From a virus (Duplodnaviria > Heunggongvirae > Uroviricota > Caudoviricetes): a stretch of DNA of 6,443 bases. Positions 2,040 to 6,443 of this stretch are shown one piece after another. The notes below the pieces were generated by a model. It was not told the DNA's origin. It did not search any database and worked only from the letters and a program-made list of their open reading frames with translations. The stretch lies in the IMG/VR virus record IMGVR_UViG_2698536392_000020; one strand, written 5' to 3'. How positions within the stretch are numbered: the stretch's first letter is position 1; every line of letters starts with the position of its first letter. Both the position numbers and the translations under genes were made by a program.

Positions 2040-2411
2040 ATGCGTATAGAGTTTGTTTTGCCTTACCCGCCGACGGTGAACACCTACTGGCGACGTCGTG
2101 GCAGCACATATTTTGTATCAAAAGCCGGTGAGCGTTATCGCCGGGCTGTGGCGCTTATTGTTCGCCAGCAGCGGCTGAAATTAAGCCTGTCCGGACGGCT
2201 GGCAATAAAAATTATTGCAGAACCACCGGATAAGCGCCGCCGTGACCTGGACAACATTCTGAAAGCACCGCTGGATGCGCTGACGCATGCGGAAGTGCTC
2301 ATTGATGACGAGCAGTTTGATGAAATCAATATTGTGCGCGGTCAGCCTGTGCCAGGTGGACGGCTGGGCGTGAAGATTTACGAAATCAGAGGTGGTAACG
2401 ATGGCGCGTGA
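2040..2411 (+). CDS. rusA: RusA-family Holliday junction resolvase (crossover junction endodeoxyribonuclease)
   Basis: 123 aa; SD AAAGAGG at 2027-2033. Conserved RusA acidic motifs ([13 protein letters not shown] and IDDEQ) and overall similarity to K-12 RusA as remembered. Typical nin-region position immediately upstream of Q. Confidence 0.85.
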
Positions 2412-2772
2412 TATCCAGATGGTTCTTGAGCGATGGGGGGCATGGGCAGCAAATAATCATGAAGATGTAACATGGCCCTCGATAGCTGCTGGTTTTAAAG
2501 GATTAATCCCGACTAAAGTGAAATCACGTCCTCAGTGTTCTTATGATGACGCCATGATAATTTGTGGTTGTATGGCACGATTAAACAAGAATAATCAGTA
2601 TTTGCACGATTTGTTGGTGGATTATTACGTAGGTGGAATGACATTTATGGCTCTTGCACGTAAGCATAGATGTTCTGATGGGCTTATTGGTAAAAGGCTT
2701 TATAAAGCGGAAGGTATTATTGAAGGAATGCTTATGGCTCTGAATGTCCGGTTAGATATGGATATGCGGTAG
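2401..2772 (+). CDS. Q: Late-gene antiterminator Q, small Phage_antitermQ type (QuuD-like)
   Basis: About 123 aa from ATG 2401 ([25 protein letters not shown]...), resembling DLP12 QuuD as remembered. The ATG overlaps the rusA stop by 11 nt, which suggests translational coupling. The ORF-track start at GTG 2392 is a less likely alternative. Confidence 0.8.
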
Positions 2773-2865
2773 GGATATATAGTGATGAGGGTTATGTTTT
2801 CTGTGTTTATAATTAACATGTTTATTTTTTTTGATGGTCATGTATTGTGGAAGGTAGATAAAATG

Positions 2866-2894
2866 TTGCCTGGTGAATTGAAAGTATTGATAAT
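2866..2894 (+). promoter_or_regulatory. Candidate sigma70 promoter upstream of the CPBP gene
   Basis: -35 TTGCCT (2866-2871), 17-nt spacer, -10 GATAAT (2889-2894); followed by SD AAAAGGAG (2914-2921) and ATG 2926. A second possible -10, TATAAT at 2808-2813, lies 36 nt after the Q stop. Identified by eye only. Confidence 0.25.
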
Positions 2895-2925
2895 CAATCT
2901 TCATCATTAAATAAAAGGAGTGCTT

Positions 2926-3744
2926 ATGTGGATTGTGTTAGTACTGTCACTGTCAACTCTCAGTTGGCATAAGGTAGTGGCTTTTTCATTGTTGACGGTG
3001 TCTGTTGTCCTGGCTGTGCTTAATGATATTATTGATTGGTCGGTGTTGTTTTTTGTTGCTACAATCGTTTTTTTTATTATTTTGAAGTTCAACTGGAAAT
3101 ATAACGCCTGGGCTAAATCTATATATGAAGTTGGCATAGTTTTATCAGCCATAGCATTATCTTTCCATCTATGGCCAGGGTTTCACAATCCTGTAGTGCT
3201 AAATTCTGTTACTGTTGGCCCTCAAAGCACTCCCTATACAATGTATTTTAATTTTGATAAAGCGCTGGTGCCATTTTTGTTAGTCCTGTGTACATCTTCT
3301 TTGTTTAAAAAAGAAGTAAAATCAGAAGTGTCTTTGTGGAAGTGGGGGGCTCTGTCGCTCTCTGTTCCTCTTATCCTGTTTTTGGCTGTTTTTTTTGGTG
3401 GATTAAAGCCAGAGATTCATTTCCCTGAGTGGTTGCCAGAGTTTATATTGGCTAATTTGTTTTTTGTGTCTCTGGCAGAGGAATCATTATTTAGAGGGTA
3501 TATTCAATCACGGCTATCAGAAGTAACGTCTCCATTGGTTGCATTAATTGTGGCGGCTTTGTTGTTTGGTTTTTTTCACTATTCAGGTGGTGCTTTACTT
3601 GTATTATTTGCCACGTTATCTGGTGTTGTGTATGGATTGTCATGGATGTGGAGTAGGCGTTTGTGGGTTGCCACCCTTTTCCATTTTGGTTTGAATCTGT
3701 GTCACTTGTTATTCTTTACCTATCCATTTTTAAAACATAATTGA
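2926..3744 (+). CDS. CPBP-family (CAAX protease / Abi, PF02517-like) intramembrane metalloprotease
   Basis: Polytopic hydrophobic protein with the three CPBP signature motifs in order: EExxxR (AEESLFRGY), FxxxH (FGFFHYSGG) and HxxxN (FHFGLNL). Strong SD; ATG 2926 preferred over GTG 2920. AT-rich, unlike the flanking phage core. Confidence 0.8.
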   Translation: MWIVLVLSLSTLSWHKVVAFSLLTVSVVLAVLNDIIDWSVLFFVATIVFFIILKFNWKYNAWAKSIYEVGIVLSAIALSFHLWPGFHNPVVLNSVTVGPQSTPYTMYFNFDKALVPFLLVLCTSSLFKKEVKSEVSLWKWGALSLSVPLILFLAVFFGGLKPEIHFPEWLPEFILANLFFVSLAEESLFRGYIQSRLSEVTSPLVALIVAALLFGFFHYSGGALLVLFATLSGVVYGLSWMWSRRLWVATLFHFGLNLCHLLFFTYPFLKHN

Positions 3745-3884
3745 TTTTTTCTATGGTTTTAAATTTATAAGACTGAAAAATAGCAGGACGTGACATTTGC
3801 ATGAAAAATATGCACGGCAAAGCATTTACGTACGTAAAAAATCAGGTATGCTGTTAAGAGTGGTTATTTCGCCGCATAGCTTGA

Positions 3885-3907
3885 CCCCGCCTCTGAGCGG
3901 GTTTTTT
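3885..3907 (+). terminator. Rho-independent terminator
   Basis: Stem CCCGC (3886-3890), loop CTCTGA, stem GCGGG (3897-3901), followed by TTTTTT (3902-3907). Lies about 140 nt downstream of the CPBP stop. Confidence 0.65.
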
Positions 3908-4030
3908 GTGCCCGCAAAGTAGCGCAGTGCGTTAAATGTGCTGGTAGTTATTAATACAGGTCTTTCAGCTTGCTGGCTTTTTCGACAAGAGTTATTGGTG
4001 TGTCACGTTAACCGGAAAGGGTAAAAAGAC

Positions 4031-4270
4031 ATGCTGAAACAGCAGGATATGACAGAAACCGCCAGAGTTGTGTTTGATGAATTAAGCGTCACCGAACCGG
4101 CGACGGTCGGGGAGATTGCGCAGAATACGTACCTTTCACGCGAGCGCTGCCAGTTAATACTGACCCAGCTGGTTATGCGGGTCTGGCAGACTATCAGTTC
4201 GGTTGTTACAGACGCCTTCAGTCCTGAAGGCTTTTTTATTTGTGGTAAATGGGCGGCTGGTGGGTGTTAG
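4031..4270 (+). CDS. Small hypothetical protein (79 aa) with a helix-turn-helix-like segment
   Basis: ORF with a weak SD; the segment TVGEIAQNTYLSRERCQLILTQLV looks HTH-like. Codon composition looks coding. However, a terminator-like hairpin with T-tract (4214-4241) sits inside the last 20 codons, so the true 3' end, or the coding status, is uncertain. Confidence 0.4.
   Translation: MLKQQDMTETARVVFDELSVTEPATVGEIAQNTYLSRERCQLILTQLVMRVWQTISSVVTDAFSPEGFFICGKWAAGGC
4214..4241 (+). terminator. Terminator-like hairpin with T-tract
   Basis: GCCTTCA (4214-4220), loop GTCC, TGAAGGC (4225-4231), followed by TTTTTTATTT (4232-4241). Confidence 0.45.
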
Positions 4271-4298
4271 CGGCACCTGTCAGTCCTTTGCTTATGTG

Positions 4299-4329
4299 TT
4301 GATGATAATTTACCTTTTGGGGCTATAAT
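4299..4329 (+). promoter_or_regulatory. Candidate sigma70 promoter for the AraC-family gene
   Basis: -35 TTGATG (4299-4304), 19-nt spacer (longer than optimal), consensus -10 TATAAT (4324-4329). By eye only. Confidence 0.25.
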
Positions 4330-4364
4330 TGAACTAACCAATTGCTAATGAAAGTAAAATTATA

Positions 4365-5078
4365 ATGGTTGTTGTCTGTTCAGTTATCATGGTTTGCTCC
4401 CCAATTAATATTTTTCTTGAAAAGGATACGTTGTCACTTAAGCCCGGCTCAGTCGTTCTGGCCACCAAATGCATCAGGGCGCTTTTCCTTATGCATTATG
4501 GCAAAGTTAAAATTTTCGATATAAACCATTCCATAGTAAGTCAATATCTGGAAATTCAGCATAAGCTGACAAGAACTCATCTGACTGACGTTCCGCTTTA
4601 TCTGTCACTGGAACCCAACAACCCTGCGTTGGCTGAGGCTTTAATTACCAGCCAGAGATTTTCCGGAGATACCACGGATATGTTTCTTATGATGGCATGC
4701 CTGTCGCTGTTTGAATCAGATGAACGGATATTATTATTTTTAAGTGGATGTTTATCCAGTATAAGTGCCAAAGTCAGGGCGATAATTCAGACAGATATAT
4801 CAGCAAGCTGGACGCTTGGTGCGATTGCGTTACGCCTGCATATGAGTGAGAGTTTGTTAAAGATAAAACTGAAAAATGAAGGGCGCATGTTCAGTCGCTT
4901 GTTGCTGGAAGAGCGGATGCGTGTTGCTGTCAATATGTTATGTTCCCGGCATGGATATGGACAGGCTGTAGCAGAAAAATGCGGTTATTCAAGCTGGTCC
5001 TACTTTATTTCTGTATTTCACCGCTATTATGGCTTCCCGCCAGACAGATATGTATCCAGGCAAGGGCTTGATTATTGA
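4365..5078 (+). CDS. AraC/XylS-family transcriptional regulator of the YdeO/AppY/GadX type
   Basis: 237 aa. The N-terminus MVVVCSVIMVCS resembles the MSLVCSVIFI of YdeO and MDYVCSVVFI of AppY as remembered. The C-terminus has the AraC double-HTH (..MSESLLKIKLKNEGRMFSRLLLEERMRVAVNML...AEKCGYSSWSYFISVFHRYYGFPP). AT-rich. No recognisable SD. Confidence 0.85.
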   Translation: MVVVCSVIMVCSPINIFLEKDTLSLKPGSVVLATKCIRALFLMHYGKVKIFDINHSIVSQYLEIQHKLTRTHLTDVPLYLSLEPNNPALAEALITSQRFSGDTTDMFLMMACLSLFESDERILLFLSGCLSSISAKVRAIIQTDISASWTLGAIALRLHMSESLLKIKLKNEGRMFSRLLLEERMRVAVNMLCSRHGYGQAVAEKCGYSSWSYFISVFHRYYGFPPDRYVSRQGLDY

Positions 5079-5106
5079 TTTTCATCTGATTATTATTTTT
5101 TGACCC

Positions 5107-5178
5107 GGCCCTTTAGCTCAGTGGTGAGAGCGACTCATAATCGCCAGGTCGCTGGTTCAAATCCAGCAAGGGCCACCA
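5107..5178 (+). tRNA. ileZ: tRNA with CAU anticodon (Ile2/ileX-like by sequence), possibly structurally defective
   Basis: Acceptor stem GGCCCTT/AAGGGCC, D-arm GCTC-AGTGGTGA-GAGC, anticodon loop CTCATAA, T-arm GCTGG-TTCAAAT-CCAGC, discriminator A and encoded CCA. Only 14 nt lie between the D-arm and the variable loop instead of the usual 18, so the anticodon stem is shortened to 3-4 bp. Confidence 0.6.
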
Positions 5179-5185
5179 TCACATA

Positions 5186-5262
5186 CCGCCATTAGCTCAT
5201 CAGGAAAGAGCGCCAGCTTTCGAAGCTGGTTGCGCGGAGTTCGGGTCCCCGAAGGCGGTCCA
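5186..5262 (+). tRNA. argN: tRNA-Arg (anticodon UCG)
   Basis: Cloverleaf by eye: acceptor CCGCCAT/AAGGCGG (one A-A mismatch), D-arm GCTC-ATCAGGAAA-GAGC, anticodon arm CCAGC-TTTCGAA-GCTGG, T-arm with TTCGGGT loop and one mismatch, CCA encoded. The deviations make it less certain than the next tRNA. Confidence 0.6.
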
Positions 5263-5275
5263 TTATCTGTATCCT

Positions 5276-5352
5276 GCGTTGTTAGCTCAGCCGGACAGAG
5301 CAATTGCCTTCTAAGCAATCGGTCACTGGTTCGAATCCAGTACAACGCGCCA
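5276..5352 (+). tRNA. argO: tRNA-Arg (anticodon UCU)
   Basis: Clean cloverleaf: acceptor GCGTTGT/ACAACGC, D-arm TAGCTCAGCCGGACAGAGC, anticodon arm ATTGC-CTTCTAA-GCAAT, T-arm ACTGG-TTCGAAT-CCAGT, discriminator G, CCA encoded. Confidence 0.85.
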
Positions 5353-5366
5353 CACTTATTTTCCCT

Positions 5367-5392
5367 GGCTCGCTTTTGCGGGCCTTTTTTTT
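5367..5392 (+). terminator. Rho-independent terminator after the tRNA cluster
   Basis: Stem GGCTCGC (5367-5373), loop TTTT, stem GCGGGCC (5378-5384), followed by eight T (5385-5392). Confidence 0.75.
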
Positions 5393-5619
5393 AAATGTCT
5401 CACAATTCAGGCGGTTGACTGTTGTCTGGTTTGCGGGGAGTTTGTTAAAAGAAACTGGCATGGTGAATCCCCCTGTGCGGAGGGGCAATCAGCGAGTAGG
5501 TATATGGGATAATCGCGGATTCAGGTGCTGGTACTGAATTCACCGGGAGGCACCCAGCACCATGCAATGGCACATAGCGCCACTCTCCAGCCCCTCTCCG
5601 GAGGGGCTTTCTTATGGAC

Positions 5620-5648
5620 AAAAAAAGCCCGCGCAGGGAGACGCGGGC
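5620..5648 (-). terminator. Minus-strand intrinsic terminator-like element
   Basis: On the + strand, seven A (5620-5626) precede an inverted repeat GCCCGCG (5627-5633), 8-nt loop, CGCGGGC (5642-5648). Read on the minus strand this is a GC-rich hairpin followed by U7. Confidence 0.45.
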
Positions 5649-5841
5649 GGCAAGGAATAAACAACAAAACGTGAAGTAATATTTCAGCTGGCGAATAATA
5701 TCCGACAGTAATCACTCTGCGCAATAGCGCGGCCTTTTTCGTATTGCGGGCTGTTGTCTCTCTTCTGCCATTGTCCTGTAACTTCCGGACTTCAGCCCGC
5801 TCCTCATTTTACTCACAATATTATCCCGGCCGGGAGGATTC

Positions 5842-6443
5842 ATGGCATTTAAACACTATGATGTTGTCAGGGCGGCGTCGCCGTCAGACCTTGCGGAAAA
5901 GCTGACACACAAACTGAAAGAGGGCTGGCAGCCATACGGCGGACCGGTTGCCATTACGCCGTACACACTGATGCAGGCGGTGGCTATTGAAGGAGATCCA
6001 CAGGTCGGCCCTTCATCTGAGCCGGACTGGTTCTACGTGGTTGTGCTTGCCGGACAGTCCAACGGCATGGCCTACGGTGAAGGGCTTCCGTTACCGGATT
6101 CTTACGATGCTCCGGATCCGCGCATTAAACAGCTGGCGCGCCGCAGCACGGTAACTCCGGGTGGAGAGAGTTGTACGTATAACGACATCATCCCGGCTGA
6201 CCACTGCCTGCATGATGTGCAGGATATGAGTACGCTGAATCATCCGAAGGCAGACCTGAGCAAAGGGCAGTACGGCTGTGTCGGCCAGGGCTTACATATT
6301 GCCAAAAAACTGCTTCCGTATATCCCGAATAACGCGGGGATCCTGCTGGTACCATGCTGTCGTGGTGGTTCTGCATTCACCCAGGGCGTTGAGGGGACAT
6401 TCAGTGCGGACACTGGGGCCAGCCAGGATTCGGCACGCTGGGG
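5842..6443 (+). CDS. nanS: NanS-p-like sialate 9-O-acetylesterase (N-terminal DUF1737-like region plus SGNH esterase domain), 5' partial; continues past the window end
   Basis: SD GGGAGG at 5832-5837, ATG 5842; the frame is open to the window end (200 codons). Contains GQSNGMAYGEGLPLPD...PRIKQLAR...DVQDM...ILLVPCCRGGSAF, closely resembling E. coli NanS/YjhS as remembered. Occupies the position downstream of the stx site in Stx-phage-like prophages. Confidence 0.85.
   Translation, partial: MAFKHYDVVRAASPSDLAEKLTHKLKEGWQPYGGPVAITPYTLMQAVAIEGDPQVGPSSEPDWFYVVVLAGQSNGMAYGEGLPLPDSYDAPDPRIKQLARRSTVTPGGESCTYNDIIPADHCLHDVQDMSTLNHPKADLSKGQYGCVGQGLHIAKKLLPYIPNNAGILLVPCCRGGSAFTQGVEGTFSADTGASQDSARW

Follow-up and report, generated by a model that had tools for sequence, protein, structure and literature searches.

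Do the three genes that lie between the antiterminator gene Q and the tRNA cluster of a lambdoid prophage form one system, or are they separate acquisitions? The question was raised by the virus record IMGVR_UViG_2698536392_000020 (Caudoviricetes, IMG/VR), from which a stretch of 6,443 nt, here called the window, was analyzed. Its interval 2773-5090 carries a gene for a CPBP intramembrane protease, a small open reading frame (ORF) and a gene for an AraC-family regulator, and an earlier note, made from the sequence alone, had taken these for a single AT-rich cargo module without a characterized counterpart. We consider it highly probable that the interval represents the stretch from Q to the tRNAs in an Sp4/CP-933N-type lambdoid prophage of Shiga-toxigenic Escherichia coli carrying the enterocyte effacement locus (LEE-positive), and that it is a mosaic of two independent moron slots flanking a late-promoter leader rather than a three-gene system. 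The genes and signals of the window from Q to the tRNA cluster are on the plus strand, as are the hok/sok locus and the STnc100 match described below.

The 2318-bp interval matches a segment of E. coli 2013C-4830 at 100% identity, its exact source apparently being a strain outside O157, and reaches 99.6% with many O157:H7 genomes. At least 80% of it is present in 540 of the 5426 complete E. coli genomes to which all genome counts given here refer, and the carriers cover several serogroups, including O157, O26, O103, O111 and O145. In prophage Sp4 of O157:H7 strain Sakai the annotated order is ECs_1084 (antiterminator Q), ECs_1085 (“phage CAAX amino terminal protease family protein”), ECs_1086 (hypothetical) and ECs_1087 (AraC-family regulator), followed by ileZ1-argN1-argO1 and, further on, pchA. 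Sp4 corresponds to CP-933N, or O-island 50, of strain EDL933 (Z1787-Z1789, the Z-numbers being assigned from primer matches and gene order), and gene order, tRNA cluster and a frameshift in the small ORF are all shared with the window. The region is already known and annotated in reference genomes of enterohaemorrhagic E. coli (EHEC), and is no new kind of system. Two of its three genes have been the subject of published functional studies, contrary to the notion of an uncharacterized module, and all three have PHROG families (phrog_13291 for the CPBP protein, phrog_331 for the small ORF and phrog_1450 for the AraC protein). As a discovery it is of low importance: the regulator, PsrA, is already established as connecting prophages with acid resistance and type III secretion.

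The AT-richness of the interval is real, because its GC content of 0.403 differs from those of the left flank (1-2772, 0.510) and the right flank (5091-6443, 0.542) by about ten standard errors (binomial standard error about 0.01 for 2.3 kb). A sliding-window profile falls from 0.51-0.56 in the left part to 0.35-0.39 at 2550-3750, recovers to 0.48-0.49 at 3900-4350, dips once more to 0.39-0.43 at 4350-5100 and reaches 0.50-0.59 past 5100. The first drop starts within the Q gene (2392-2772; GC 0.42, GC at third codon positions (GC3) 0.36), and the left boundary of the AT-rich DNA therefore lies near 2400 and not at 2773. Three parts can be told apart, namely slot A (2773-3883, GC 0.364), a 418-bp backbone piece with the small ORF (3884-4301, GC 0.498; GC3 of the small ORF 0.61) and slot B (4302-5090, GC 0.408). 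The interval is thus two AT-rich segments split by a piece of normal GC content, not a single compositional block. The earlier description was sound as regards the low GC content, the location of the three ORFs between Q (2401-2772) and three tRNA genes (5107-5352), and the view of the AT-rich parts as horizontally acquired cargo in a lambdoid prophage; its block of ~2.3 kb was not, as the low GC starts in Q and is interrupted by the 418-bp piece. The upstream ORFs were assigned by Pfam to Hok, DUF968, RusA and the PF06530 Q protein.

The three genes also differ in distribution. The CPBP gene occurs at 577 places in 572 genomes, psr-type genes (85% identity or more), to which the AraC-family gene belongs, at 1324 places in 726 genomes, and the 418-bp piece with the small ORF at 4701 places in 2159 genomes. 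With 1324 psr places against 577 CPBP places, under half of the former can adjoin a CPBP gene. A query running from Q through the CPBP gene was covered to at least 80% in 572 genomes, i.e. in 572/572 CPBP carriers, and throughout the collection the gene therefore adjoins this Q allele; alleles of the same Q that have diverged further (about 83% DNA identity) lack it. Downstream, the neighbours change. PapM-36-2 (locus L007), which lacks psrA, has Q, the CPBP gene, an intact small ORF, a DNA methyltransferase gene and tRNA-Thr/Gly; RM8082 (locus L008), which lacks both the small ORF and the AraC gene, has Q and the CPBP gene and then stx1d; and 2011C_4247 has only the first 72% of the block. 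Genes of the psr type occur without CPBP, behind other Q families and other slot-A genes, in CEA212U and in phage phiSTEC1575-Stx2k, where the psr homologue stands just before the tRNAs and stx2k. The linked pair is Q and CPBP, not CPBP and the AraC gene. Co-inheritance of three genes as one module has to be given up in favour of independent distribution, with unequal numbers of places and swapped neighbours, which the earlier note had itself named as the outcome that would contradict it.

It is accordingly highly improbable that the CPBP protease, the small putative helix-turn-helix (HTH) protein and the AraC regulator constitute one functional module, for example a membrane protease controlling a pair of regulators and serving to reprogramme the host, exclude superinfection or abort infection. 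The three ORFs do lie side by side on the same strand and occur together in the 540 genomes over several serogroups, as such a module would. However, the small ORF is frameshifted both here and in O157 and lies on a backbone piece that has varied neighbours at its 4701 places; CPBP is found without psrA (L007, L008 and H7), and psr-type genes are mostly found without CPBP; a late-promoter core and two terminator-like hairpins separate the CPBP gene from psrA; and neither the CPBP nor the AraC protein has a match in PADLOC, the distant homologues of the former having no conserved partner. The distribution data have already largely refuted a single module.

The small ORF (4031..4270, 79 aa), which had been listed as an HTH-like cargo gene beside the correctly recognized CPBP and AraC genes, has no Pfam match. 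It derives by frameshift from a conserved backbone gene of 65 aa (phrog_331; “TrmB family” in the Prokaryotic Genome Annotation Pipeline, PGAP). An alignment with copies from four other genomes showed that the window and Sakai lack one G after 4177 (GTTATGGCGGG to GTTATGCGGG), and PGAP labels the gene as frameshifted in both identical and O157 records. Intact 65-aa copies end inside the loop of a strong terminator-like hairpin (4214-4231, followed by T6), and five distinct intact copies exhibit 86 synonymous vs. 34 non-synonymous codon differences, one pair having 9 vs. 0. Because of this synonymous excess the ORF is taken to be real elsewhere and decayed here. The gene matches phrog_331 with an E value of 1e-37; winged-helix matches of the intact form were below threshold (TrmB 18 bits vs. 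a cut-off of 25.6), and its match in PADLOC-DB 2.0 was marginal only (E 0.0036). The 418-bp piece is found behind three Q families (PF06530, PF06323 and PF06576) with changing neighbours: a hypothetical gene and a DNA methyltransferase gene in locus L003, none upstream and DUF3927/IraM downstream in L004, and a 618-bp hypothetical gene and a psr homologue in CEA212U (L005). In many Stx2 phages it is followed by a DNA methylase gene, tRNAs and stx2. The piece is phage backbone and not cargo, and the small ORF is a pseudogene here, inactivated by a 1-bp deletion. ECs1086, annotated as “hypothetical/TrmB”, has decayed from a late-leader gene that is widespread and under purifying selection.

Q-dependent late transcription had been expected to read into the whole interval, which raises the question of where the late promoter PR' is located. 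The AT-rich Q gene (2401..2772, with a PGAP coding sequence at the same position in identical and near-identical records) is of the PF06530 type (Pfam, 169.5 bits), and its product has 80% identity to Q933 of the Stx2a phage Sp5 (BLASTP, 95/119). In Sp5 the PR' start (1,266,203) and the 3' end of the terminator tR' (1,266,460; 258 nt, NC_002695.1) have been mapped by differential RNA sequencing (dRNA-seq) and Term-seq (Sy et al. 2020, PMC7547250). Transfer to NC_002695.2 with an inferred offset of 142 bp (own calculation) puts them at 4346 and 4603 of the Sp5 locus (L009); the former is an A located seven bases past a TATCAT hexamer, and the latter the final T of the tR' T-run, and the transferred coordinates are thus internally consistent. 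The predicted PR' of the window (3825..3852) is homologous to L009 4312-4346 and consists of a -35 hexamer TTTACG (3825-3830), a 16-nt spacer and a -10 hexamer TATGCT (3847-3852). The -35 sits in a perfect 14-bp palindrome, TTTACGTACGTAAA (3825-3838), and the -10 is followed by the +1 motif TAAGAGTGGTTA, with a predicted start near A3859, and by a hairpin, CCCGCC...GGGTTTTTT. An element of about 85 bp (3825-3907) aligns with the Sp5 PR' core, with the K-12 prophage DLP12 and with four other loci, and it is present once in each PF06530-Q locus fetched, including DLP12, where it stands after nmpC and before essD. In RM8082 it comes after the CPBP gene and is followed by sequence homologous to the Sp5 StxS/tR' region before stx1d. 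Judged by this homology, the late promoter would lie downstream of the CPBP gene, with transcription starting near 3859, so that the protease gene would occupy a Q-to-PR' slot and the small ORF and psrA would lie in the late leader. Late read-through would then hold for the latter two and not for the protease gene upstream.

A terminator scan found two hairpins in this leader. T1 (3886..3907; CCCGCC-TCTGAG-CGGG and a T-run) would span roughly nucleotides +28 to +49 of the late transcript as predicted and is kept in all PF06530-Q loci examined (7-locus alignment). T2 (4214..4237; GCCTTCAGTCCTGAAGGC and T6) overlaps the stop codon of the intact 65-aa gene, is also kept across loci, and is the likely equivalent of tR' before slot B. 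T1 had been a candidate for tR' as well, and was downgraded since the equivalent hairpin of Sp5 lies ~200 nt ahead of the mapped tR'.

In Sp5 PR' abuts the Q stop codon, the sequence directly after it being TTTACGATCGTAAAAATCTGCATATCATGATAAGAGTGGTTACATTGCCACGCAGTCGAACCCGCCGATGCGCGGGTTTTTTT. By analogy PR' might lie directly after Q in the window, within 2773-2925, in which case the CPBP gene would be inside the late leader and transcribed constitutively from PR' as far as T1, acting as tR'. There are promoter-like sites at 2835-2907, a perfect TATAAT at 2810-2815 is kept in three Q-CPBP loci, and Q, CPBP and T1 are inherited together, the homology of RM8082 running through T1 and being lost just past it. 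We nevertheless regard this arrangement as improbable: the sequence homologous to the Sp5 PR' occurs once per locus and in the window is downstream of CPBP, the core in DLP12 is likewise far from quuD and after nmpC, and 2773-2925 has no similarity to the Sp5 PR' region. With PR' downstream of the CPBP gene, the leader would comprise, in order, PR', T1, the 65-aa winged-helix-like gene (inactivated here), T2 and slot B with psrA.

The space that separates a PF06530-type Q gene from its late promoter appears as a recurrent cargo slot (CPBP, nmpC and others), distinct from the slot past tR' that receives stx, DNA methylase or psr genes. Further occupants of the Q-to-PR' slot are the 618-bp hypothetical gene of L005 and an ORF6N fragment in L006; in DLP12 (L019) the TAAGAGTGGTTA core is at 3226-3237 and nmpC at 530-2826. 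The palindrome at the -35 position differs between loci, from TTTACGTACGTAAA here to TTTACGATCGTAAA in Sp5 (L009 4312-4325) and TGTTATAACA in CEA212U (L005 around 3975), whose Q is more divergent. Possibly it serves for Q binding and varies together with the Q allele.

The CPBP gene (2926..3744), an intramembrane glutamic endopeptidase gene in slot A between Q and PR', encodes 272 aa from the ATG at 2926, which relatives and PGAP also use and which has an AGGAG ribosome-binding site 5 nt before it. The protein is identical to Sakai ECs_1085 at 271/274 positions and contains PF02517 at residues 171-260 (69.6 bits, cut-off 22.4). The motifs EExxxR, FxxxH and HxxxN are all intact, E187/E188/R192, F216/H220 and H255/N259 being invariant in 16 homologues of 46-84% identity, as is a conserved subfamily-specific stretch at residues ~83-119 (H83-PGxxN ... 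MYxNxDKAxxPF). An AlphaFold2 model (mean predicted local distance difference test (pLDDT) 91, predicted template modelling score (pTM) 0.88) is all-helical with ten helices. In a Foldseek search of the PDB its top match was SpdC (6U0O_A; probability 1.00, template modelling score (TM) 0.45-0.49, weak E value of 0.011), followed by Rce1 (4CAD; probability 0.84, weak E value of 0.048). No cut-off of a named NCBIfam CPBP equivalog was reached, MroQ and myxosortases included. A tblastn search of 50,697 phage records gave no match, though PHROGs has phrog_13291, and PADLOC-DB 2.0 had no match for the CPBP or the AraC protein; no evidence was thus obtained for the suggested role in defence or abortive infection. 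Homologues of ~50% identity and the same length are common in Enterobacterales (Enterobacter, Citrobacter, Dickeya, Serratia, Photorhabdus, Providencia, Hafnia and Salmonella), and the distant ones in Dickeya, Photorhabdus and Salmonella lie at unrelated chromosomal loci with no conserved partner gene and no toxin neighbours. In our reading the protein would be an active inner-membrane endopeptidase captured from an enterobacterial chromosome.

The gene has been studied before under another name. Jandu et al. (2009; PMC2654852) investigated “a protease on O-island 50, gene Z1787”, and the CPBP gene is Z1787 because their reverse transcription PCR (RT-PCR) primers match it, at 2943-2963 exactly and at 3418-3437 with one mismatch. 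They found the transcript raised about 2.7-fold in the presence of HEp-2 cells and also present in uninduced cultures. Deletion of Z1787 abolished the EHEC block of STAT-1 phosphorylation induced by interferon-gamma (IFN-gamma), complementation was only partial, and Z1787 put in HB101 had only a partial effect (PMC2654852). The gene is cited again in a later transcriptome paper. A candidate sigma-70 promoter (2866..2894; TTGCCT, 17 nt, GATAAT; 9/12 in a consensus scan) fits the reported expression in uninduced cultures; it is kept in PapM-36-2 and RM8082, where the -35 is TTGCCA. The gene would probably be served by its own promoter in lysogens and, after induction, by read-through from the early-right operon. 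The “released protease” proposed in 2009 does not fit a protein that is, according to the model, almost entirely transmembrane helices. Since such a protein would be an integral membrane enzyme, any real STAT-1 effect is more probably an indirect one, or in part a polar one on the adjacent late leader and psrA. As the gene for a predicted integral membrane enzyme, placed ahead of the putative late promoter and immediately before the psrA leader, Z1787 gives reason to re-examine the secreted-protease reading and the partial complementation of 2009.

What, then, might the protease do? One tentative idea, to which we give little weight, is that the Q-linked CPBP protein is an early-operon function of the phage with a specific membrane or periplasmic substrate, serving for example in exclusion or immunity, or in the processing of a surface or secreted protein of the bacterium with an effect on host-cell signalling. 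If true, this would be the first functionally defined CPBP protease of Enterobacterales, and the STAT-1 phenotype of 2009 would be explained. Also doubtful is the view that the gene benefits the phage, by superinfection exclusion or by immunity to bacteriocins or membrane toxins, and is not a virulence factor, the STAT-1 phenotype being indirect or polar on psrA and the late leader. CPBP (“Abi”) proteins confer bacteriocin self-immunity in Firmicutes, and a phage benefit would agree with the complete linkage to the Q allele and the position in the early-right and not the late operon. The partial complementation of the deletion and the partial effect in HB101 (PMC2654852) are in line with it, and the predicted near-total embedding of the helices in the membrane opposes a secreted protease. 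Nevertheless, the protein lacks a PADLOC match and a tblastn homologue in the 50,697 phage records, its distant homologues are ordinary chromosomal singletons without toxin neighbours, and an exclusion or immunity phenotype is absent from the literature found.

The protease gene is also part of a Shiga-toxin phage, as the Stx1d prophage of RM8082 (L008 2984-6338) has the Q-CPBP unit (CPBP gene 88.7% identical at the DNA level) directly upstream of a StxS-like leader and stx1dAB.

The third gene (4365..5078), in slot B between T2 and the tRNA cluster, encodes an AraC/XylS regulator identical at 236/237 positions to the protein from the Sakai gene at ECs_1087. Its C-terminal AraC HTH was recognized by PF12833 (36.9 bits, cut-off 33.6) and PF00165 (35.6 bits, cut-off 26.6), and the likeness to YdeO and AppY that had been noticed was confirmed along the full length (31% identity to K-12 YdeO and 29% to AppY). 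The best NCBIfam match is YdeO (NF007407), but 104.1 bits against an equivalog cut-off of 348, together with 31% identity, rule the protein out as a YdeO equivalog; by analogy it may work like YdeO/AppY, yet it is not YdeO itself. The gene ecs1087 of Sp4 has been named psrA (PMC13502914), as has z1789 of O-island 50 in reviews (PMC10877973, PMC8565820), which describe PsrA as an AraC/XylS regulator that induces GadE and YhiF, hence represses type III secretion, and aids persistence in sheep. PsrB, a paralogue, is described there as binding the promoters of hdeA and gadE and increasing acid resistance (PMC10877973, PMC8565820). The proposed host reprogramming is therefore apt for the AraC gene, which according to this literature activates gadE and yhiF and represses type III secretion, and not for the module as a whole. 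Downstream of the same region Sakai and OK1 have pchA or a PerC-family gene, and Sp4 also contains remnants of tccP2 and espV.

Directly after terminator T2 is a candidate promoter of psrA itself (4302..4329; ATGATA, 16 nt, TATAAT), the best of the scan with 10/12 and kept in CEA212U. The gene would in addition be crossed by Q-antiterminated late transcription, in a position held by a DNA methylase gene in many Stx2 phages. Expression of psrA responds, indirectly, to the Hha-targeting small RNA HnrS (PMC13502914), which is consistent with H-NS/Hha silencing of AT-rich cargo. HnrS was considered as an element of this region and rejected, its copies being in Sp9, Sp10 and Sp12. The start of psrA is annotated differently in Sakai (195 aa from an internal Met, corresponding to 4491) and by PGAP (237 aa, 4365); coverage by the YdeO model and by the YdeO/AppY alignments starts at residues 1-3 of the protein and speaks for the longer form.

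To the right, the cargo is bounded by three tRNAs of the ileZ-argN-argO type (5107..5352; anticodons CAT, TCG and TCT), identified by ARAGORN, Rfam and the Sakai annotation. They are framed by a promoter-like site (5068-5096), matching a tRNA promoter noted in Sp5 (PMC7547250), and a terminator (5367-5384), both found by scanning. The first tRNA (CAT, 5107-5178) is only 72 nt long, as one GAGC of the GAGCGAGC repeat present in Sakai Sp4, Sakai Sp5 and CEA212U is missing in the region of the D-arm and anticodon stem, and it may be defective. A search of the whole window against Rfam gave no RNA family within 2773-5090; sok, the tRNAs and STnc100 lie outside. STnc100 (RF02076; 5429-5619, 130.6 bits, full length) is just past the tRNA cluster and its terminator. 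At the other end of the window is a hok/sok type I toxin-antitoxin locus (206-530), with sok at 206-380 (111.7 bits), a Hok/Gef ORF ending at 530 and hokD annotated in identical records, next to a weak isrK-like match (539-620; 27 bits, under the gathering score). Some 8 kb upstream of its match to the window, 2013C-4830 (L020 1-6212) has another TrmB-like ORF together with a psr homologue and an Ile/Arg/Arg tRNA cluster; behind them come a lysis cassette that is truncated and an IS3 element abutting the hokD of the window. This upstream stretch looks like tandem or recombined lambdoid remnants.

Several points weigh against a mosaic of two independent slots around a late leader, or against the functions proposed for its parts. 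Of the 572 CPBP loci, 540 have psrA downstream, almost all at 99% identity or more, an association that can be explained by common descent, with a functional link less likely. PR' was placed by homology alone, and its -10, TATGCT, is weaker than the TATCAT of Sp5. The CPBP and psrA promoters are consensus matches only, from which their function is inferred. The CPBP phenotype comes from one study, with only partial complementation, and the function of PsrA is taken from reviews and one primary paper.

Compared with known systems, the segment differs from Sakai Sp4 by an R in place of H at residue 174 of PsrA, by three substitutions in the CPBP protein and by a first tRNA that is 4 nt shorter. 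With the PR'-StxS-tR' leader of the Stx phages Sp5 and Sp15 it shares the palindromic -35, a TATnnT -10, the +1 motif TAAGAGTGGTTA, the proximal GC hairpin and a Q that is 80% identical. Whereas PR' of Sp5 abuts Q, an 819-bp protease gene and flanking non-coding DNA intervene here, and beyond the hairpin the backbone piece of the 65-aa ORF, with its own terminator, takes the place of the Sp5 leader (StxS, 258 nt). In the cryptic prophage DLP12 of K-12, nmpC is also cargo between quuD and the same PR' core, upstream of the lysis genes, although it is a porin gene on the opposite strand and unrelated in sequence to the CPBP gene.

The CPBP protein has PF02517, the intact motifs and a predicted polytopic helical fold in common with Rce1 and with SpdC and MroQ of Staphylococcus aureus. 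It differs from them in being prophage-borne and in belonging to an Enterobacterales-wide subfamily of about 272-276 aa. PsrA, like YdeO and AppY of K-12, has about 240 aa, with full-length similarity and a C-terminal AraC HTH, and these proteins, along with the prophage-encoded AraC regulators PsrB and PatE of EHEC, are described as feeding into gadE and AR2 acid resistance. The genes differ in location: psrA occupies the late-leader slot of a lambdoid phage, whereas ydeO lies beside ydeN and safA on the chromosome and appY beside ompT in DLP12.

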